Assembly: GCA_903870365.1 (NCBI GenBank)
Contig: CAIQCQ010000015.1
Coordinates: 1 to 56,068 of the forward strand
Reading direction: 5' to 3'
From: an uncultured bacterium
Lineage (GTDB): Bacteria > Patescibacteriota > Minisyncoccia > Phycocordibacterales > DATDWN01
DNA: 56,068 bases
Positions within the stretch are counted from its first letter, which is position 1; the number at the start of each line of letters is the position of its first letter. Below are positions 8,295-53,563 of this stretch, piece by piece. Made by a program: the position numbers and the translations under genes. The notes under the pieces were generated by a model that ran no database searches, had not been told where the DNA came from, and saw only the letters and a program-made list of their open reading frames with translations.

Positions 8295-8708
8295 ATGATT
8301 AAAAAAATAAATAAATACGCCATTGGCGATTTTCATTTACGAGTGGGCCTTGGCGTATCAGGTAAAGGACTCTTTGCCACTGTTCCTGTTCCAAAAAATT
8401 CCTACATTATTGAGTACATTGGTAAAACAGTCCCACCAGCCAACCATGACACCGTGACTGGCAGATATCTTTTTTGGGCAGGCAAAAAGTTGATGATCGA
8501 CGGTAATATCAAAGAAAACAAAGCTCGCTTCATCAACCACTCGTGCAAGCCAAACTCCAAAGCAGAAGGTCCAGACGGCCACATCTATATACGAACACTC
8601 CGAGCGATCAAACCTGGTGAAGAAATTACTTATGACTATGGTGACGAATACTTTGATGAATTTATCAAACCCAAAGGCTGTGGCTGTGTGAAGTGTGTAA
8701 AAGGGTAA
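8295..8708 (+). CDS. SET-domain protein-lysine methyltransferase
   Basis: GKGLFA, IIEYIG, ARFINHSCKPN, GEEITYDYG, post-SET CGCVKC. Confidence 0.93.
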   Translation: MIKKINKYAIGDFHLRVGLGVSGKGLFATVPVPKNSYIIEYIGKTVPPANHDTVTGRYLFWAGKKLMIDGNIKENKARFINHSCKPNSKAEGPDGHIYIRTLRAIKPGEEITYDYGDEYFDEFIKPKGCGCVKCVKG

Positions 8709-8757: not shown

Positions 8758-9177
8758 CTACATCACCGCAATAATGACCCCCATGGTGACCATGACCACC
8801 AATGAACATGCACATTCAAAAAGCCAGAGTTTGACTGATCTCCCCATCCAGAGAACTTCGATCGAAGACGAGGTGACCAAAAAACCAAGCCAGACACACA
8901 GTGCAGATGTCACGGCAGTCGCTATCCCTGCTCCACCGAGTACCAGAGAAGTTGATGCGAGTAGATAAACCACTGCGAGCGCATACGCAGTAACAAAATT
9001 AGAAATGAGGTTACCCACCATTTGTGGAACCATATCTGACAACTTTTCATTGCCCGTCATCTTGATATTGGCAAGCTTCATCCACAATTTTCCAAGCAAC
9101 GGCCCATGAAATAAAAATCCAAGGATAAAGGCAACAATAGCCGCAATACTGACTGCAAATAAATTAATCGGTAACAT
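8758..9177 (-). CDS. DUF1761-like membrane protein
   Basis: A..AF.LGFL.HGPLLGKLW N-terminal pattern; 4 TM. Confidence 0.75.
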   Translation of the reverse strand: MLPINLFAVSIAAIVAFILGFLFHGPLLGKLWMKLANIKMTGNEKLSDMVPQMVGNLISNFVTAYALAVVYLLASTSLVLGGAGIATAVTSALCVWLGFLVTSSSIEVLWMGRSVKLWLFECACSLVVMVTMGVIIAVM

Positions 9178-9928: not shown

Positions 9929-9995
9929 TTTCTAAATAGTGATTTATTTCAAAAATAATACTTCTTAAGAACCTAATTGTACCAAACTTACGAGC

Positions 9996-10073
9996 TGGAA
10001 TAGGAGTAGGTGTCAGAGTAGGTGCAGAGTAGGTGTCAGGTACCGTTTTTTAAAATAAAATTCTGAACAAAGC
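9996..10073. repeat. Cassette-boundary repeat copy A (44-bp core plus ragged TAGGTGTCAG mini-repeats)
   Basis: 10030-10073 is identical to 10676-10719. Confidence 0.9.
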
Positions 10074-10167
10074 TGGCCGTCTGGTATGACGTAGGAACAG
10101 CTACGGCCCTATCAAGGCCTTAATTTAAAAACTAGACTAACAATTCTCTATCGAAGCTGGAACCTAT

Positions 10168-10608
10168 TTAGTTCTGGTTATTGTTTAATTCTACTGGAGA
10201 AGTTGTCCTCTTCGAGCCACGGTAATATTTGATAGCATTTATTCCACCAACTATCAATCCTAGTATTAGCACTGTATGCACAACTACCGCTGCTAATGCA
10301 CCAAAAACTAAACCAATGACAAGACCTATAAGACCCATGTCACTGGAAGCAACGAAAGATACAGTTCCTGCTTCGAAAATACCTATCAGGAAAAGTAGAA
10401 GGTTCCGTCTGAAACGAACTCTCGGATCAGGATTGCTATAGAGAAAATATTCTATTATTAGAATTACTAACAAAAAAAATATCGCTGGAAGCCCATAAGT
10501 AAAAAGAAGTAGAATTGCTAATATCAGTGTAGCGATGCTGAAAATCTTGCCTTTAGCCGTAGCCCAGTATTTTTTCCATTGAACAAAAAGGTCTATGTAG
10601 TAGTTCAT
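10168..10608 (-). CDS. Hypothetical multi-pass membrane protein (cassette-like)
   Basis: 146-aa hydrophobic ORF between the two 44-bp repeats. Confidence 0.7.
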   Translation of the reverse strand: MNYYIDLFVQWKKYWATAKGKIFSIATLILAILLLFTYGLPAIFFLLVILIIEYFLYSNPDPRVRFRRNLLLFLIGIFEAGTVSFVASSDMGLIGLVIGLVFGALAAVVVHTVLILGLIVGGINAIKYYRGSKRTTSPVELNNNQN

Positions 10609-10634
10609 ACTTCAATTATTACAGTTATTCTGAT

Positions 10635-10719
10635 TGGAATAGGTATCAGGAATAGGTGGAAATAGGTGTCAGAAATAGGTGTCAGGTACCGTTTTTTAAA
10701 ATAAAATTCTGAACAAAGC
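10635..10719. repeat. Cassette-boundary repeat copy B
   Basis: Same 44-bp core TAGGTGTCAGGTACCGTTTTTTAAAATAAAATTCTGAACAAAGC with different mini-repeat expansion. Confidence 0.9.
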
Positions 10720-10873: not shown

Positions 10874-10944
10874 CTACGGGACCTGGATTCGAACCAAGAT
10901 AAATGCCTTCAGAGGGCATTGTCCTACCATTAGACGATCCCGTA
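10874..10944 (-). tRNA. tRNA-Gln(CUG)
   Basis: TACGGGA/TCCCGTA acceptor, ATGCC-CTCTGAA-GGCAT anticodon arm, GGTTCGAATCC; CCA not encoded. Confidence 0.95.
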
Positions 10945-14337: not shown

Positions 14338-14424
14338 AATGGATTGAATAATGAAGTACGAATCACGATGTACGAATAATACAAAGATTTTTTCGTAATT
14401 CTTATTTCGTTATTCTTTATTCTA

Positions 14425-21930: not shown

Positions 21931-21989
21931 GTAAAATAGAAATACGAATTAAGAATTACGAATAATAAGTAAGACTGCTATTATATCAT

Positions 21990-23875: not shown

Positions 23876-26102
<2,227 letters not shown>

Positions 26103-28517: not shown

Positions 28518-29396
28518 TTACATTCCAAAAAACTGACTGATACCTAACACATCAACATGAGTAAAGAACACAATACAAACTCCAAGAATTAAAAATGGTC
28601 CCAGTGGTACTTCTGATCCAGCAGTAAGATGAAATATTCCTGGGAATATACGCTGAATTACTAATAATAGTAAACAAACAGCTGCTCCAATCCAAAATCC
28701 CAAGACAATAGCAGATAAACCATATACAAAACCCAGCAGTGCACCGATACCGACAGCTAACTTGGCATCACCAAAACCAATCCACCTACCTTGTGAGACT
28801 ACCCAGAGAAGCCAAAATGGTGTAAACAATATGAGAGGAGCAAAGAGATCCATGATATAAGGAAAATGAAAAGAGGTAGAAAGAAAACTACCACCAGAAA
28901 TAATGGGGAAACAAAAAAGATAAAAAACAATTAATTTGATTGCTGACAAACCGATAAACCAGAAAACAAACTCATTCGGAATAATCTTGTGACGCATGTC
29001 ATAGACAGCAATAATAAGGAGGATGGAAACAATAGAAAAATAGAAAAAGAGAAGAATAGAAGAATAGAGTAATCCGTGGGCATAGGTCGAATACAGAGTG
29101 GTATATAAAACATACTGACGAACAAAAACTAAAGCAAACAAAACAGCTGAAGAGATTTCAACGAGTGGATACTGACAAGATATATGAGTACCACAACCAG
29201 AACACCGACCTCGCAAAAAGAGAAAAGAAACAACCGGAATATTTTCATACCAATGAAGTTGTTTGCCGCAGGTCAAACACATTGAACGTCCAGTCATTGC
29301 CGATTTTCCTGTGTTATATCGATAAATCACCACATTCAAAAAACTACCAATAAACAGGCCGAGTACAGAAAAAAGTACTAATGCGTAGTAAATCAT
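28518..29396 (-). CDS. pilD: Prepilin peptidase
   Basis: GSFLNVVIYR, two CxxC, YD..H..IP, GFGDAKL, PLGPF. Confidence 0.95.
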   Translation of the reverse strand: MIYYALVLFSVLGLFIGSFLNVVIYRYNTGKSAMTGRSMCLTCGKQLHWYENIPVVSFLFLRGRCSGCGTHISCQYPLVEISSAVLFALVFVRQYVLYTTLYSTYAHGLLYSSILLFFYFSIVSILLIIAVYDMRHKIIPNEFVFWFIGLSAIKLIVFYLFCFPIISGGSFLSTSFHFPYIMDLFAPLILFTPFWLLWVVSQGRWIGFGDAKLAVGIGALLGFVYGLSAIVLGFWIGAAVCLLLLVIQRIFPGIFHLTAGSEVPLGPFLILGVCIVFFTHVDVLGISQFFGM

Positions 29397-32712: not shown

Positions 32713-32801
32713 ATATTAAGTTTACAAGTTTGAAAGTAAAAAGTTTTGAAAGTTAAGAAATTTCCCATGGCTCTCAACTTATATTTTTACCTTTTCTACT
32801 T

Positions 32802-33233
32802 TTATTTTTTCTTTTTATAAATATTTAATACCTGTGCAACAACCTCAGACGGAATATTTGTTGCCTTTACAATAAAACCATCGATACCTATTTGCTTGGC
32901 TTTTTCATCGTCATCCGCTTGATTAGTCAACATCACAATACATGCATCACCATCAAGTTTTTCTTTACGAATCGTTTCCAATAATTCCAGTCCATCAATA
33001 TGAGGCATAATAATATCGAGTAAAATAATGTCTGGAGTATATCCTTCCCTCAGTTGTTTCAGCGCATCAGTCCCATTAACTGCGATACTCACCTGACAAC
33101 CAGATTTACTAAATTTCAATGAATACATATCAAGCAAAAACTTATCATCATCAACAAGAAAAATTTTAATCTTCTTTTGAGAGGAAGTATGCTCAGCATC
33201 TGATATCTCTGTTGTTGTGTGTTCCTCTTGCAT
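32802..33233 (-). CDS. Single-domain response regulator (receiver)
   Basis: LVDDD, LLDIIMP, MLTN, IVK. Confidence 0.92.
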   Translation of the reverse strand: MQEEHTTTEISDAEHTSSQKKIKIFLVDDDKFLLDMYSLKFSKSGCQVSIAVNGTDALKQLREGYTPDIILLDIIMPHIDGLELLETIRKEKLDGDACIVMLTNQADDDEKAKQIGIDGFIVKATNIPSEVVAQVLNIYKKKK

Positions 33234-41746: not shown

Positions 41747-41832
41747 TCTACCAGTTCACAGCAACTTCAAATTCCCGAAAAGTAGAAGTTCCATTCGTTA
41801 TTCTTAATTCAAACTTCGTACTTCTATTTCTC

Positions 41833-42235
41833 GGGGATGACAGGTATAGACATATACGTCCTTTGACAATGCGCACGGCAGAGCTTGAGTGACTCTTTAA
41901 TCCGCTCAAAAGCATACGTGCTAAAAACACCCTTGCAAAAGCAGTTCGTTCTCCGTTCGTCGGAGTCAACGGATTTGCTCTCGCTTTCGCGTAATCTTTT
42001 TTAAGACTACACCATTGCGGCGGCTCTCCCCCGAAGTCTGTTACGGGAAAGAGTTGATATACTTCCGGACTTTGGCAATCTCCGTCGTTTCAGGATATTG
42101 TCGAGACAATGAAGCTGGATTCGTATCTATTTCGTAGATTTTATAGGATACGGATCGAGAAAAACAAAATCCACTACGCCATGTAGAAGCATTGTTAAAA
42201 CGTGTGTGCACGGGGCTTCAATGCTCCCATCTCCA
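41833..42235 (+). ncRNA. ssrA: tmRNA; tag reading frame 41935-41994 = AKAVRSPFVGVNGFALAFA*
   Basis: GGGGATG pairs with CATCTCC-A (G3:U70), T-arm GGGGC-TTCAAT-GCTCC, GCA resume codon, Ala-rich tag end; directly after smpB. Confidence 0.92.
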
Positions 42236-42281
42236 CATCTGATTATCAAAATGTTGTAAATCCTTAACTTTAAATATCAAC

Positions 42282-44440: not shown

Positions 44441-44577
44441 GAGTACATTCTAGCCCATAAAGTCTATAAAGTCGAAAGTCTGTAAAGTAATACCCTGCTA
44501 ACTTTATAGATTTTAGACTTTATGGAATTTTCATGCTACTATATTCCCTGTTATCAATTCCCTAACCACCATATTTC

Positions 44578-45309: not shown

Positions 45310-45654
45310 ATGACACGAGTAAAAAAAGGCGTTAATGCGCTTAAATCAAGAAAGAATATCCTCCGCAAGGTAAAAGGTTATCGTTTTGGACGATCAACAA
45401 AGGAGCGACAGGCAACTGAAGCTATTTTCCACGCTGGAGCATATTCATTTGCTCACCGAAAGGACAAAAAAGGTGATGCCCGCCGACTTTGGAACGTCAA
45501 GATTTCATACGCCGCAAAGCCACTTGGCATCTCATACAGTAAACTCATGGGTGGTTTGAAAAAGAAAAACATCCTTCTCGACCGTAAAATTCTCTCAATC
45601 CTCGCAGCCGAATCACCAAAGACATTTGAGAAGATTGTGGAAATGGCAAAATAA
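45310..45654 (+). CDS. rplT: 50S ribosomal protein L20
   Basis: MTRVKKG, RRLW..KI, LDRKIL. Confidence 0.97.
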   Translation: MTRVKKGVNALKSRKNILRKVKGYRFGRSTKERQATEAIFHAGAYSFAHRKDKKGDARRLWNVKISYAAKPLGISYSKLMGGLKKKNILLDRKILSILAAESPKTFEKIVEMAK

Positions 45655-45692
45655 TCTGGAAGTATATAGTATGAAGTATATGGTATATAGTA
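45655..45692. repeat. (GTATATA)n heptamer array, left arm of inverted pair around the four-helix-bundle gene
   Basis: AGTATATAGTATGAAGTATATGGTATATAGTA. Confidence 0.8.
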
Positions 45693-46058
45693 TTAAAACT
45701 GCCTCGCTGGGGCAGTTTTAATTAATCCTGAAAGCAACTTTGCGACCAAATATATATTATTTTCAATTATCTTAAAATTTTCTTCTTTTATATACAACAA
45801 ATCTCTTGCGATCATACACTGACTTTCCAATTCTAAAAGTGAACCTCTTGAGATCGTATAAAAAAATATCTTGTCTTTGGATGTGTTCCTTCCAAACCCC
45901 TCTGCAATATTTGATGTGATAGAAATAGCAGATCTCCTCATTTGATCAACAAGAGCGAATCTTTCATCCTGAGGAAACGTCTTTGTACATTTATATATCA
46001 AAAGTGCCAATTTATGAGCCTCCTGATACACAATAAGATCTTTAAAATGATTGATCAT
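45693..46058 (-). CDS. Four-helix-bundle protein (23S rRNA IVP / Avd-like family)
   Basis: FKDLIVYQ, FPQDERFAL.DQMRRSA.SI.SNIAEG, RGSL.E. Confidence 0.93.
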   Translation of the reverse strand: MINHFKDLIVYQEAHKLALLIYKCTKTFPQDERFALVDQMRRSAISITSNIAEGFGRNTSKDKIFFYTISRGSLLELESQCMIARDLLYIKEENFKIIENNIYLVAKLLSGLIKTAPARQF

Positions 46059-46067
46059 ATCTTCTCC

Positions 46068-46100
46068 TATACTATATACAAAATACTATATACTATATAC
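46068..46100. repeat. (TATATAC)n heptamer array, right arm
   Basis: TATACTATATACAAAATACTATATACTATATAC; overlaps and supplies the MBL gene stop. Confidence 0.8.
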
Positions 46101-47444
46101 CTTTCCCCTCTCAGGATATAAAGCATCGACATCCAAATAATCTCGTAGTCGCTGAACCAAAAACATAGACGACTTTGGTTCACCCATGACCACAAACACT
46201 TTTTTAACACTATAGGCCGTGTCTGACACCATCTCCACCAAATGTTCAGAGTCTTTGTGTGACGAATAACCAGAAATCATTTCTATCCGGGCACGAACAG
46301 GCAGTGTCTGACCATCAATGTCGATACTATTTGGCTTTGCCTGTATGCGGCTACCTAAAGTACCAACCGCTTGATACCCCATGAGAAGAATAGTGCTCTT
46401 TGGATCGGTGATGAAATTCATCTCATGATGAACCACTCGCCCACCTTCGGACATACCACTACCAGCCATAATAATCTTTGGATTTGGAATATCCTCAACT
46501 TTTTGAGACTCATAGCCACTGTGCACAATTTTTAATTTAGGAAAAGAAAAAATATCATCACCACCTTTTATTTCTTGTTGCACCGCATCATTAAACAAAT
46601 CGGTCGAATGTTTATAGACCTCGGTTACTTTCAGCGCGAGTGGTGAATCCAGAAACACGGGAACTGCTGGTATTTTGCCATCTTCCACCATATTATTTAA
46701 TTCATACAAAACTACCTGGGTACGTTCAATAGAAAACATCGGCATAACAAGGGCACCACCTGCAGTAATAGTTTCTTGTATAATTTCTGCAAATCGAGCA
46801 TCCCGCTCCGCTTTTGGTTCATGATTCCTATCGCCATAGACACTATCAATAATAAGATAGTCTGCGCCTGTGATCTTTTCTGTATCACGCAACAGTGGTG
46901 AGGGTGAATTACCCGAGTCTCCGGTAAAGACAATTGTTTTGCCATTATGACTAAACTGATACATTGATGAGCCAAGGATATGCCCTGCATCAAGTAGTCG
47001 GACAGAGAACGTGCTGGTCAATGTATTATCTGTATCATAGACAAAACTCTTCCACAACGACATGGCCTTGTTTGCATCATCAGTGGTATACAGAGACTTG
47101 CCCTTGCCCTCTCGTTCATTCATATCCATGACTTTCACGGCATCAGCAAACATAATCTCTGCCAATTCACGAGTCTCTGGCGTAGAATAGATGGTTCCAG
47201 CAAAGCCATCACGCACCAGTTTTGGCACCCGACCAATATGGTCCATATGGGCATGGGTGATGAATAAGAAATCCATCTCCGCTGGATTGTACGGAAATGG
47301 CTTTGCATTTTCCTCAGCCGACCCAGCCACTCCTTGGAGCAAACCGCAATCCACTAAAATATTTGTCTTTTCATCTTGCAACAAAAAATTTGCCCCGGTG
47401 ACGGACCCAACTCCTCCCCAGAATGTAAGTTTGAGAGTAGACAT
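46086..47444 (-). CDS. MBL-fold beta-CASP ribonuclease
   Basis: THAHMDHIG, AGHILGS, FTGD, SGYSSH. Confidence 0.92.
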   Translation of the reverse strand: MSTLKLTFWGGVGSVTGANFLLQDEKTNILVDCGLLQGVAGSAEENAKPFPYNPAEMDFLFITHAHMDHIGRVPKLVRDGFAGTIYSTPETRELAEIMFADAVKVMDMNEREGKGKSLYTTDDANKAMSLWKSFVYDTDNTLTSTFSVRLLDAGHILGSSMYQFSHNGKTIVFTGDSGNSPSPLLRDTEKITGADYLIIDSVYGDRNHEPKAERDARFAEIIQETITAGGALVMPMFSIERTQVVLYELNNMVEDGKIPAVPVFLDSPLALKVTEVYKHSTDLFNDAVQQEIKGGDDIFSFPKLKIVHSGYESQKVEDIPNPKIIMAGSGMSEGGRVVHHEMNFITDPKSTILLMGYQAVGTLGSRIQAKPNSIDIDGQTLPVRARIEMISGYSSHKDSEHLVEMVSDTAYSVKKVFVVMGEPKSSMFLVQRLRDYLDVDALYPERGKVYSI

Positions 47445-47504
47445 AATTTTGAATTTTTCAATTTTAAAACAATGTGTGAATGTCTTAATTTTCGAAATTA
47501 GAAA

Positions 47505-47924
47505 TTAGAAATTTTTTATATAATTAAAATTTCGTAACTTATTGTAAGCATACAATACAGCGACTAATCCCCCAAATGTATCCATCGTCACATCCATCCC
47601 ATTATCAGCTAGATACTCCCACGATGGCCAAAACGACATACCCCAATAGGTAATCCCTACAGACAATTCATACACTTCCCACAACAACCCGACGACAAGT
47701 GCCGTCGTTACACCCCAAAGAAGCAACTTTCCATATGACACGTCATTCTTTGTAGCAGTTAAGACGGTCAAAGCAGATAACCCAATAAAAAAACCACCCA
47801 AAAAATGGAAAGTCATATCAAAATTGGTGATAGCATCAAATAAATGAAAATAAAATGCTATAGCATTCCAAAAACCCACAACCAGTAGGGTGATAAAAAA
47901 TGATTTGAATAGTGGTGAATTCAT
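47505..47924 (-). CDS. Membrane protein (VanZ/DUF2238-like)
   Basis: D..FHFLGG, GLLWEVYE, D...D...GG motifs. Confidence 0.72.
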   Translation of the reverse strand: MNSPLFKSFFITLLVVGFWNAIAFYFHLFDAITNFDMTFHFLGGFFIGLSALTVLTATKNDVSYGKLLLWGVTTALVVGLLWEVYELSVGITYWGMSFWPSWEYLADNGMDVTMDTFGGLVAVLYAYNKLRNFNYIKNF

Positions 47925-49800: not shown

Positions 49801-49997
49801 ATTAGATATACGAATATCCGAATTAATCTTCGCCCTCTCCCCGTCATTCCCGTGCAGACGGGAATCCAGTGTTTCAAAAATTAAAGTATTCAGTCATTGT
49901 TTCAAAATTCAAAATTGGAAATTCAAAATTAAGACCTTGGATGAGGGACATGATGTATTCATCAGGTGCTCCCGTATGTACGAGAATGACAGAAAAA

Positions 49998-51914: not shown

Positions 51915-52008
51915 GTTGATAGAGTTATGAGACAAGAGATTTGAGATATGATGTGTAATTAGAATATCTTGAATTTTTCATATCTCATCTCTCTTATCTC
52001 GTGTCTCA

Positions 52009-52461
52009 TTATACTACTATTTTTCCTCCCAACTTTTCTACCTCAGCCTGTGCTGTAGCAGAAAATGTAAAACCTGAAAAAGAAAGTTTCTTGGTCAATG
52101 GAGCCTTTGCGGTACTACTGAGAATTTTTACTGATGGAATTTTACCCTTGTATATAGTGATCAACTTATGTTCAATCAATACCTGTGGAGTGACAGTCAC
52201 TCCAGCATCACAGACGCCAGCAATGCGCGAGAGAGACAAAACAATAGGCTTGTTCTGAATCGAGAGGTTACTGTTTTTACCGCGACCTCGCAACTTTGGC
52301 AGACGTTTAATAAAGTCTCGAAGTTCTGGACGGTTCTTGTGACCAGCACGAGCATTCTGACCTTTTGTTCCACGGCCAGATGTTTTTCCACGAGTTCCAC
52401 CACGACCAACTTGTGCTGATGTTTTATTCTTATGAAGTCTTTTTACATTATGTTTTTGCAT
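52009..52461 (-). CDS. rplO: 50S ribosomal protein L15
   Basis: GRGGTRGKTSGRGTKGQNAR. Confidence 0.97.
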   Translation of the reverse strand: MQKHNVKRLHKNKTSAQVGRGGTRGKTSGRGTKGQNARAGHKNRPELRDFIKRLPKLRGRGKNSNLSIQNKPIVLSLSRIAGVCDAGVTVTPQVLIEHKLITIYKGKIPSVKILSSTAKAPLTKKLSFSGFTFSATAQAEVEKLGGKIVV

Positions 52462-53517: not shown

Positions 53518-53563
53518 TATTTTCTTATTCTAGATTCTTACTTCAAGATTCTAGCTTCTATCC

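Follow-up and report, generated by a model that had tools for sequence, protein, structure and literature searches.

An S23p/IVP gene between inverted heptamer arrays at a protein-coding junction of a CPR bacterium: a candidate cassette of the rRNA intervening-sequence type

In a 56,068-nt stretch of contig CAIQCQ010000015.1 (hereafter the window; position 1 is its first letter), which comes from a bacterium of the Candidate Phyla Radiation (CPR), a gene of the S23p/IVP four-helix-bundle family lies at 45,655-46,100 between two inverted arrays of degenerate heptamers. We refer to the gene with its arrays as the cassette and to the arrays as its arms. The cassette is situated between two convergent host genes, and the locus is composed as follows.

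45693..46058, minus strand: IVP / S23p four-helix-bundle gene, 121 aa, apparently intact (PF05635, PDB 2GSC, AlphaFold2 (AF2) and Foldseek)
46069..46100, minus strand: 5' arm in the sense of the IVP gene, 4.7 degenerate heptamers, G-containing strand (Tandem Repeats Finder (TRF), inverted pair, codon overlap)
45662..45693, minus strand: 3' arm, 4.7 degenerate heptamers complementary to the 5' arm, with the terminator hairpin on one side and the rplT stop codon on the other
46063..46068, minus strand: Shine-Dalgarno-like AGGAGA, 4 nt ahead of the IVP ATG (from sequence)
45692..45722, no strand assigned: bidirectional terminator-like hairpin, 12-bp perfect stem with A-tract and T-tract (inverted-repeat search)
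46086..47444, minus strand: beta-CASP / metallo-beta-lactamase RNase J-like gene, the upstream host gene (Pfam Beta-Casp, Lactamase_B, RMMBL)
45310..45654, plus strand: rplT (L20), the convergent host gene (Pfam Ribosomal_L20, E=1.6e-30)

An earlier, sequence-only reading of this DNA had described the IVP gene as bracketed by inverted heptamer arrays, and the anatomy agrees with that description. TRF finds a period-7 array of 4.7 copies on either side, with unit AGTATAT at 45661-45693 on the left and unit TATACTA at 46068-46100 on the right, and an inverted-repeat search pairs 45662-45693 with 46069-46100 over 32 nt at 88% complementarity and a spacing of 375 nt. The predicted fold of the minus-strand RNA (461 nt) is closed by a stem of the two arms and has a minimum free energy of -121.1 kcal/mol (z -4.83), and none of 100 shuffles folded as stably. 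Between the arms and overlapping the final IVP codons sits the hairpin at 45692-45722, which we term terminator-like from its form and from equivalent hairpins in relatives; a simple promoter/terminator scan did not list it, as the rule of that scan lets the stem absorb the T-run. The arm at 46069-46100 covers the final five codons and the stop codon of the beta-CASP gene, whose C-terminus is 1-2 residues shorter in the window than in relatives according to a C-terminal comparison. Rfam gave no rRNA match in the window, and both flanks of the cassette are protein-coding genes. No target-site duplication was seen by eye at the cassette or at the ACGAAT hairpins described below.

The window protein belongs to the S23p/IVP family. 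It matches 23S_rRNA_IVP (PF05635) over profile positions 1-106 of 106 with E=8.2e-37 and 126.1 bits, the cut-off being 33.8. Sequence comparison with crystallized members gave E=2.5e-19 and 39% identity for XCC0516 (PDB 2GSC, five chains in the entry) and E=0.0023 for BT_0352 (2RLD). An AF2 model built from three sequences reached a mean predicted local distance difference test score of 88.1 and shows helices at 2-25, 34-55, 60-86 and 92-114; its Foldseek template modeling (TM) scores are 0.83/0.89 to 2GSC, 0.84/0.87 to 2RLD and 0.78/0.87 to Avd (4DWL), a protein of diversity-generating retroelements (DGRs), at a sequence identity of 8%. The placement of the protein in an IVP/Avd-like four-helix family by the sequence-only reading is therefore supported by the full PF05635 match and, on the side of Avd, by the modeled fold. 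A conserved S23p motif GxxRxxxSxxxNxxE is given in the available part of PMC3936711, and R42, S46, N50 and E53 of the window protein stand at this spacing with Q39 at the G position; D38, Q39, R42, S46, N50 and E53 are invariant among three CPR IVP proteins. From the 39% identity to 2GSC and the description quoted in the accessible text of PMC4990558, the window IVP would be expected to form a homopentameric ring.

Given the similarity to Avd, the gene could be imagined as a DGR remnant, that is, an Avd gene surviving the loss of its reverse transcriptase, with the arrays as decayed template and variable repeats. DGRs are common in CPR bacteria, the fold agrees with 4DWL at the TM values given above, and a weak match to bAvd (PF22296, E=5.3e-5) exists. 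This origin is nevertheless scarcely credible. The bAvd match of 24.1 bits stays under the family cut-off of 40 whereas PF05635 is matched in full, and no reverse-transcriptase domain was found in the 70 window ORFs (open reading frames) scanned, template and variable repeats not having been searched for separately; the protein is thus an S23p member rather than part of a DGR. The arms, heptamer arrays of 32 nt, also differ from a pair of ~100-nt template/variable repeats, and the same layout is found in 23S rRNA intervening sequences (IVSs). At this locus the DGR explanation is effectively refuted by the full PF05635 match, the lack of a reverse transcriptase in the scanned ORFs and the type of the arms.

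For comparison, relatives were collected by a genome scan with SecY, which is encoded 5 kb from the cassette, so that the loci span most of the junctions considered here. The 80 loci obtained (SecY 64-75% identical; titled Zambryskibacteria, Paceibacterota or Parcubacteria) comprise ~1.3 Mb, or 1.36 Mb including the window; their gene calls are simple longest-ORF choices, and gene order is conserved across them. The IVP gene is polymorphic as an insertion: the beta-CASP|rplT junction lacks it in all 24 relatives that retain this junction, of which 16 have a junction of 3-68 nt, nearly all with a terminator hairpin, and 8 have other inserts. None of the 24 has a heptamer hairpin there. This last result bears on a rival explanation to which we return several times: the arrays could have come first, arising at host junctions by slippage and quasi-palindrome correction or by selection on RNA structure, and the IVP gene could have landed or been trapped in such a hairpin, its arms not being mobile. 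We consider this unlikely, and the lack of a landing-site hairpin in the 24 relatives is one argument against it.

Three further IVP genes occur in the 80 loci (L034, L035 and L037), all of them at map|ndk and not at the junction used in the window. In L037 and L034, the gene lies within inverted AAAGT-type arrays spanning the interval from the map stop codon to the ndk start codon, the L034 copy being frameshifted (a pseudogene or an assembly error). In L035, a cyclodipeptide-synthase-like extra gene replaces the left arm and the right arm alone is retained. A SecY tree places the three in a well-supported clade of 14 in which they are not mutual closest relatives, and the IVP-less members of this clade have no AAAGT hairpin at map|ndk; in another clade, L002 and L017 have a one-sided array resembling the right arm at the same junction. 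The proposal that the gene in its periodic stem behaves as an insertion is supported by the empty beta-CASP|rplT junctions and the presence of the other IVP genes at a different site.

Bracketing was also scored for all 1843 genes with enough flank as complementarity between the 75 nt on each side. Eleven genes reach the threshold of 14, with the window IVP in 8th and the L037 IVP in 10th place, so that complementary flanks are found in 2 of 3 IVP genes versus 9 of 1840 others (Fisher p=9.7e-5). The nine include rplR in L012 and L003, both with periodic arrays, and seven genes with non-periodic arms, namely two IS200-type transposases, a DUF559 endonuclease and genes for Cas2-like, helix-turn-helix, infC and CYTH products. 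An association between arrays and IVP genes, on which the sequence-only reading had staked its proposal, is strong, as seen in these 2 of 11 bracketed genes and in 18 of the 20 plasmid loci described next.

A tblastn search with the window IVP gave 49 plasmid records, mostly from heterocystous cyanobacteria, and 20 loci were picked from these by hand. Period 7-8 arrays lie in at least one flank of 18 of the 20, over four phyla, and in 14 of the 20 the two flanks carry inverted arrays that complement each other (ungapped scores 12-31). One locus has unrelated arrays on its two flanks and one has an array on one flank; both adjoin an ISL3 transposase. Azospirillum lipoferum 4B (L087) carries a classical IVS in helix 45 of the 23S rRNA, with arms of GAGGACG x3.9 and GTCTTCT x4.1, and the set also includes Riemerella (Bacteroidota) and Gemmatirosa (Gemmatimonadota, period 8). 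Apart from 23S rRNA, the insertion sites include cas6|cas4 (two cases, in cyanobacteria whose IVP proteins are <45% identical), cas10|cmr3 and the junction between two ribonucleotide reductase genes (L082, L086, L090 and L093 together), and the flanking arrays suggest that the IVP genes of cas loci are insertions. In Nostoc sp. C052 (L081) and Nostoc sp. ATCC 53789 (L096), different cassettes (CAGGAGT and GGGAAAA, respectively) sit at neighboring junctions of apparently one and the same plasmid operon; one cassette has the neighbor WP_104899637.1 on its downstream side and the other has it on its upstream side.

The link between gene and array is not a by-product of repeat-rich genomes, since arrays cluster at the IVP gene where wider surroundings were included. 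In four loci with 20-kb flanks (120 kb), 5 of 6 period-7 arrays with at least 3 copies lie no more than 45 nt from the IVP gene, as do all 4 such arrays of the Azospirillum and Riemerella loci. Both this clustering where arrays are otherwise rare and the presence of arrays at 18 of 20 IVP loci over four phyla argue against hairpins that preceded the gene. The layout of an IVP gene with heptamer arrays occurs in Patescibacteria, Cyanobacteriota, Bacteroidota, Gemmatimonadota and Pseudomonadota, in rRNA as well as in protein operons; array-bracketed IVP cassettes are not specific to CPR.

Several features of the arms indicate that they belong to the gene. G outnumbers C in the 5' arm of 17 of 17 inverted IVP cases. 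In the gene-less inverted pairs of the clade, the G-rich array comes first in 22, the orientation is reversed in 8 and the arrays are equal in 2 (three rows are near-duplicates), the exceptions stemming mostly from one family, ATTTCTAA/TTAGAAAT. The copy numbers that TRF gives for arrays beside IVP genes cluster at 3.6-5.0, plus some long expansions. The IVP proteins of Stanieria (L089) and Nostoc (L091) are 79% identical and lie in different contexts, and their arrays have words in common on both sides; common array words likewise link L081 and L094, which are also 79% identical. Unit cores are common to L081/L090 (63% identical) and to L082/L084 (72%). The recurring unit families and the common words of 79%-identical IVPs suggest that the arms are mostly carried by the element, and by the sequences at hand arms and IVP gene appear to be co-inherited over short evolutionary distances. 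That such IVPs keep their array words across hosts and contexts is a further point against arms that were part of the landing site.

Heptamer arrays are not restricted to IVP genes in this clade. The window contains 12 period-7 TRF rows versus 1.29 +/- 1.05 (maximum 4) in shuffles, about a ninefold excess, and 36 TRF rows in total versus 11.3 +/- 3.7, where the chance level derives from 100 block-wise shuffles preserving local dinucleotide content. Chance or artefact as the source of the arrays is ruled out by these shuffles and by recurrence in independent assemblies; assemblies of metagenomic genomes can collapse or mis-join repeats. The sequence-only reading had listed ten gene-less arrays, often as inverted pairs. 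All ten are intergenic and 8 of them are called by TRF at a score of at least 30, the program missing 1724-1752 (two units only) and 41762-41830. As inverted pairs, six are upheld by their hairpins, two are weak and the remaining two are one-directional and show no fold. The ten are listed below with the z scores of their folds.

51915..52011, minus strand: gene-less inverted heptamer-array hairpin at the rplO|secY junction (TRF rows 51918-51951 and 51978-52012), z -6.3
1715-1760: gene-less hairpin containing the listed array at 1724-1752, z -4.5
41747-41850: gene-less hairpin in the smpB / tmRNA gap, containing the listed array at 41762-41830, z -3.3
14338..14424, minus strand: gene-less ACGAAT-family hairpin at the ftsE|ftsX junction (TRF), z -3.1
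44455..44525, no strand assigned: gene-less AAAGT-family hairpin between the divergent genes dsbD and infC (TRF), z -2.8 (fold 44441-44530)
53518..53563, minus strand: one-directional heptamer array with a small hairpin at the rplF|rplR junction (TRF), z -2.3
32718..32816, minus strand: weak AAAGT-type inverted arrays at the response-regulator|pilT junction (TRF), z -1.5 (fold 32713-32801)
47445..47515, minus strand: GAAATTA x2.9 array and a weak inverted partner ahead of the beta-CASP gene (TRF), z -1.3 (fold 47445-47520)
21935..21974, no strand assigned: one-directional heptamer array of 5.4 copies at the junction of gatA and a hypothetical gene (TRF), no hairpin, z 0.35 (fold 21931-21980)
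49871..49931, minus strand: one-directional heptamer array TTCAAAA of 4.3 copies at the adk|map junction (TRF), no hairpin, z 0.18 (fold 49860-49935)

The arrays of the window all differ in unit, and the units of the ten gene-less arrays are unlike those of the IVP arms. At one of these sites, smpB is followed directly by the tmRNA gene at 41833-42238 (Rfam, 84 bits), and the intervening hairpin at 41747-41832 has ATTCGT-type words in its loop.

Over the window and the 80 loci together, TRF gives 223 period-7 rows, of which 130 lie in the intergenic 14.4% of the sequence, 75 are coding and 18 are at edges; period-14 rows are distributed alike. The 139 mostly intergenic arrays of these 81 sequences comprise 75 distinct heptamer units, with a median of 4.1 copies (interquartile range 2.9-4.6). 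An inverted partner within 1.6 kb at a score of at least 14 was found in 61 of 588 cases, compared with 6 of 588 for a complement-only control. The commonest array core of the clade is AAAGT/ACTTT (44 clusters in 18 loci); CGAAT/ATTCG accounts for 12 clusters in 8 loci and GATTA for 7 clusters in 5 loci, and such pentamer cores are found again in other species and at other junctions. Hairpins of 116-130 nt of the ACGAAT family share their ends between three junctions of one genome and the rplO|secY junction of three more genomes (L003, L004, L005 and L024 are members), the ftsE|ftsX hairpin of the window being a worn member. As the sequence-only reading had anticipated, orthologous junctions vary in state, and clean, array, hairpin and filled forms were all found. 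The rplO|secY junction measures at most 25 nt in 65 of 73 loci and is occupied by three different array families in different lineages; rplF|rplR measures at most 25 nt in 46 of 74. This concentration of arrays in intergenic sequence as a clade-wide feature favors the explanation in which host hairpins came first, as do the ~29 gene-less inverted pairs that stand against 4 IVP genes in the window and the 80 loci.

Other hairpins and repeats were seen in the relatives. A non-periodic hairpin of 125-150 nt with ends like AACTTCCAAATT...AAATTTGAAAGTT and a GC-rich tip, similar to a miniature inverted-repeat transposable element (MITE), recurs at ribosomal-operon junctions of the relatives (L002 8454-8590 and 7782-7919; L021 8386-8523; L024 8367-8517 and 2470-2643; L013 5093-5217; L014 1642-1828; L018 3324-3477; L030 3634-3780). 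Another recurring junction hairpin of ~135 nt has a conserved core around TTTTCAGCAGAAAATT and is found in L013 (9830-9961), at map|ndk in L039 and L064 and downstream of map in L059, L061, L065, L069, L070, L071 and L079. At map|ndk, L004 and L005 have a one-directional TTAATCC-type array after a -10-like element, and an extended -10-like TGTGTATAAT or TGTTATAAT in several relatives (L006, L010, L021 and L023) suggests an internal ndk promoter. In two relatives, an IS200-type Y1 transposase gene (L057 1186-1860; L063 19477-20112) has copies of a palindromic hairpin of terminator-like form at its flanks.

The sequence-only reading had interpreted gene-less arrays as hairpin scars left by departed cassettes, and this part was not borne out. 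An orthologous junction with IVP-type arms but without the gene was sought at beta-CASP|rplT (24 loci) and in the map|ndk clade and found in neither. No intergenic IVP remnant emerged when 13 IVP proteins were compared by tblastn with the window and the 80 loci; the 18 matches, with E between 0.11 and 1.0, were all inside other genes. In addition, the 130 intergenic rows face 4 IVP genes. Since gene-less arrays are too numerous and varied, bracket rplR and hold no IVP remnants, they are not readable as excision scars, and on the same grounds the ideas of scars and of repeat-writing are only partly supported. Instead, we read them as a related but largely independent population, non-autonomous or host-maintained, comparable to the GGGAATC pairs of Xanthomonas and to the cyanobacterial heptamer repeats.

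With moderate confidence, we interpret the window feature as a small selfish cassette of IVS build that sits between protein genes and whose arms move with the gene. It would consist of a ~120-aa S23p/IVP gene with its own ribosome-binding site and of two inverted terminal arrays with 4-5 degenerate heptamers each, the G-containing array placed 5', and these arrays would be part of the cassette and travel with it. Its entry into a convergent junction of 25-70 nt between the RNase J-like gene and rplT would have clipped one or two codons of the former and left the bidirectional terminator between the IVP stop codon and the distal arm. Transcripts with both arms could form a stem of ~30 bp that would be an RNase III substrate as in rRNA IVSs, and a cassette that is cut out, or otherwise insulated from its neighbors, could persist in rRNA helices and at stop|start operon junctions. 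The heptad arrays would probably also be read by the homopentameric IVP ring at about one heptad per subunit, which could serve autoregulation or spread of the cassette. In the window, each convergent mRNA would carry one unpaired G-strand array; given this and the internal terminator, we weight a binding role or a DNA-level terminal-repeat role above the stem role here. Recombination between the ~30-bp arrays or a heptad-extending activity are possible modes of movement.

A number of observations weigh against this interpretation, and some of them favor the alternative of a hairpin already in place. In relatives, the beta-CASP gene ends with ...AAG GTA TAC/TAT... followed by three or four further codons that are absent from the window, and the 5' arm of the window starts exactly at the conserved Gly-Lys-Val-Tyr codons of this gene (Val-Tyr = GTA TAT). 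A start on native codons hints that the array has at least partly grown from local sequence, as a host hairpin would; a ready-made terminal repeat could begin there only through microhomology or luck. It is also the part of the earlier claim of locally derived units, laid down by a repeat-writing process, that finds support, while the recurrence of cores and the array words kept by 79%-identical IVPs speak against it. The terminator within the arms, probably a host terminator and a point in favor of a gene that landed in a host structure, means that the beta-CASP-IVP and rplT transcripts should not normally contain both arms, and the RNA stem may seldom form here. The unit of the cassette is unique, no second array with its AGTAT/ATACT cluster being found in the window or the 80 loci, and within this lineage the sequences offer no direct evidence that the cassette has moved. 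To our knowledge, no enzyme able to move it is known.

Brackets of this kind also arise without any IVP. In L012, the essential rplR lies inside a perfect 26-nt inverted array pair (8560-8589 and 8941-8966), the downstream arm of which contains the last codons of rplR itself and has its complement upstream of the gene; in L003, rplR is flanked by two complete ACGAAT hairpins. The L012 case, together with the parallel of IVSs that land in the tips of rRNA hairpins, again fits the view that hairpins precede genes. Nor did 330 junction hairpins show a bias expected from selection on RNA: mismatches of G-U and A-C type numbered 66 and 53 (p=0.27) and were also non-significant at stricter energy cut-offs, in a set that consists mostly of non-periodic hairpins and has low power for arrays. 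Over 190 pairs, protein identity and shared array words correlated with rho 0.108, which is not significant (347 of 5000 permutations as high); only the closest pairs share words, and the units evidently turn over quickly. Finally, the 20 plasmid loci are a non-random choice made for taxonomic breadth; 16 come from cyanobacteria, 2 have no arrays and 2 have direct arrays on both flanks.

The heptamer arrays could also be the regulon of a domesticated regulator, in which the IVP ring binds arrays to act on translation coupling or on mRNA processing and stability, autoregulates and has nothing mobile left. We regard this as distinctly improbable, even if the modal array length of 4-5 units fits a pentamer and arrays of the clade often stop a few bases before start codons that have no Shine-Dalgarno sequence, as is described for TAACTGA repeats in the available part of PMC4679880. 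According to the accessible portion of PMC4692102, the array unit at XCC0516 is that of the other 185 X. campestris arrays, many of which lie at core-operon junctions, and a heptamer-binding protein, "yet to be identified", is inferred in the part of a Nostoc preprint at hand (10.1101/2022.06.06.494920). However, one protein is unlikely to read all arrays of the clade, given 75 units in 139 arrays and the different units of the gene-less arrays and the IVP arms in the window. Moreover, 77 of the 80 related loci have arrays and no IVP within 10 kb, a weak argument as an IVP may be encoded elsewhere in the genome. IVP genes are also subject to decay, as in the frameshifted L034 copy and in the ORF of Coxiella, which is eroding and probably unexpressed according to the available text of PMC4990558.

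A wider reading would unite S23p/IVP rings and heptamer arrays in one system, in which the ring reads about five heptads, the cassette is autonomous and the gene-less arrays are its offspring or landing pads. The gene-less set would then include the CPR arrays, the GGGAATC pairs of Xanthomonas and the core-operon repeats of cyanobacteria. Cassettes could move via recombination within the ~30-bp arms or through an activity that lays or extends heptads from local sequence; the window arm on Val-Tyr codons and the perfect rplR bracket in L012 hint at the latter route. We put this forward tentatively and think it unlikely to hold as a whole. If true, it would provide a function for a structurally solved protein family and an origin for both rRNA IVSs and heptamer repeats. 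We know of no function for the S23p/IVP family, although crystal structures have been available since 2006. Three puzzles that have been treated separately, the function of S23p/IVP, the origin of IVSs and the heptamer repeats, are joined here in a testable hypothesis, that of a pentameric ring reading heptad arrays and of a cassette tolerating or exploiting hairpins in transcripts.

Some further observations were made outside these subjects. Two repeats of non-triplet period lie in coding sequence unless the ORF calls are wrong: TGAAGCT x4.6 (period 7, 24252-24283) inside the ligA ORF and GAAAAATA x5.2 (period 8, 29026-29068) inside a prepilin-peptidase ORF. A 146-aa ORF at 10168-10608 (minus strand) with no Pfam match is situated between two direct copies of ~75 nt (9995-10075 and 10630-10715), in each of which a 12-13-nt tandem array (units GAGTAGGTGTCA and GGAATAGGTGTCA) precedes an identical stretch; with a tRNA gene at 10874-10944 just past the repeats, the ensemble resembles an att-like duplication or a small cassette that has been inserted. 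In the relatives, the motif TAGTTCGAC-N-GCTCACTATAAATAA follows directly after stop codons at various ribosomal-operon junctions (L034, L036, L043, L045, L052, L068, L021 and L027) and may be a promoter-like or processing signal.

Among known systems, Avd of DGRs forms a pentameric ring and binds nucleic acids. The window protein is predicted by its model to share the four-helix-bundle fold of Avd (PDB 4DWL, 8UB7) at TM 0.78-0.87, and the 8% sequence identity and the lack of a reverse transcriptase in the scanned ORFs set it apart. Correia elements of Neisseria are short hairpin-forming insertions at junctions that are co-transcribed and cut by RNase III; they have terminal repeats of unique sequence, target-site duplications and many near-identical copies. 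For the window cassette, in contrast, neither a target-site duplication (by eye) nor near-identical copies were seen. It differs in the same way from MITEs, having no near-identical copies in the window or the 80 loci, whereas gene-less hairpins of the ACGAAT type are found repeatedly, with their ends conserved.

We know of no cause or binding partner of the operon-junction heptamer repeats of Xanthomonas, cyanobacteria and Beggiatoa; heptamers of the STRR type in cyanobacteria were reportedly described by Mazel et al. in 1990. For X. campestris, the available part of the study of GGGAATC and Nostoc GGGGAYT arrays (Rehm et al. 2015, PMC4692102) gives 186 GGGAATC arrays, most of four units in the table part, and 70 convergent pairs, for example at groES|groEL, atpA|atpG and ddl|ftsQ. 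Like the arrays of the window clade, they have ~4 intergenic 7-nt units near stop and start codons and form convergent inverted pairs, 20-135 nt apart, at core-operon junctions with the G-rich array first. Those genomes have one dominant unit, as far as that part goes, whereas the window clade has 75 units in 139 arrays, and since these are AT-rich and not G-rich, they would not form G-quadruplexes. One four-unit GGGAATC array, in row 15 of table A in supplement 2, is 6 nt away from bccP and extends over the start codon of XCC0516, which encodes the crystallized S23p; the terms "S23" and "helix bundle" are absent from the main text of PMC4692102. TAACTGA repeats of Beggiatoaceae, cyanobacteria and Bacteroidetes occur in 2-6 copies just upstream of start codons, and a binding protein has been postulated, with no associated gene identified in the available part of the report (MacGregor 2015, PMC4679880). 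They have a single unit and are there nearly always direct, with one indirect repeat, in contrast to the many units and inverted pairs of the window clade.

IVP genes inside cas operons, for example at Cmr2|Cmr3, have been read as possibly having cas-associated functions (Zhang et al. 2013; available part of PMC3936711). They resemble the cas6|cas4 and cas10|cmr3 cases found here, and heptamer arrays are not mentioned in that part of the paper. For annotation, IVP genes within cas, ribosomal or cell-division operons are probably to be regarded as insertions and not as operon members. Already known are thus ORF-bearing rRNA IVSs, IVP genes in cas loci and junction heptamer arrays in Xanthomonas, Nostoc and Beggiatoa. 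A general link of heptamer repeats with IVP was not found in the literature searched beyond the Coxiella IVS and may stand in papers of subscription journals, among them the original accounts of STRR and of the Leptospira IVS. We could not find in print that IVP genes as a rule lie within heptamer arrays, inside rRNA or elsewhere and across phyla including CPR, nor that the two phenomena may be one.

The closest known counterparts of the window cassette are the IVSs that fragment 23S rRNA. We know of no explanation of their origin, and an ORF-bearing 23S IVS was reportedly described in Leptospira by Ralph and McClelland in 1993. In Coxiella burnetii, the helix-45 IVS has a 28-bp terminal stem, is excised by RNase III, holds an S23p ORF in its loop and contains two to three tandem GACAGAT heptamers, the number of which varies among strains (available text of PMC4990558). 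The window cassette differs in its position outside rRNA, between an RNase J-like gene and rplT, and in the terminator inside its arms; its gene looks intact and has a good Shine-Dalgarno sequence, unlike the eroding Coxiella ORF, and cutting by RNase III, demonstrated for rRNA IVSs, would here be expected by analogy. In build, however, it agrees with them: a loop that holds an S23p/IVP gene of ~115-125 aa, a stem of ~28-32 bp, a total of ~430-450 nt and tandem heptamers in the stem region, two to three in Coxiella, ~4 per arm in Azospirillum and 4.7 in the window.

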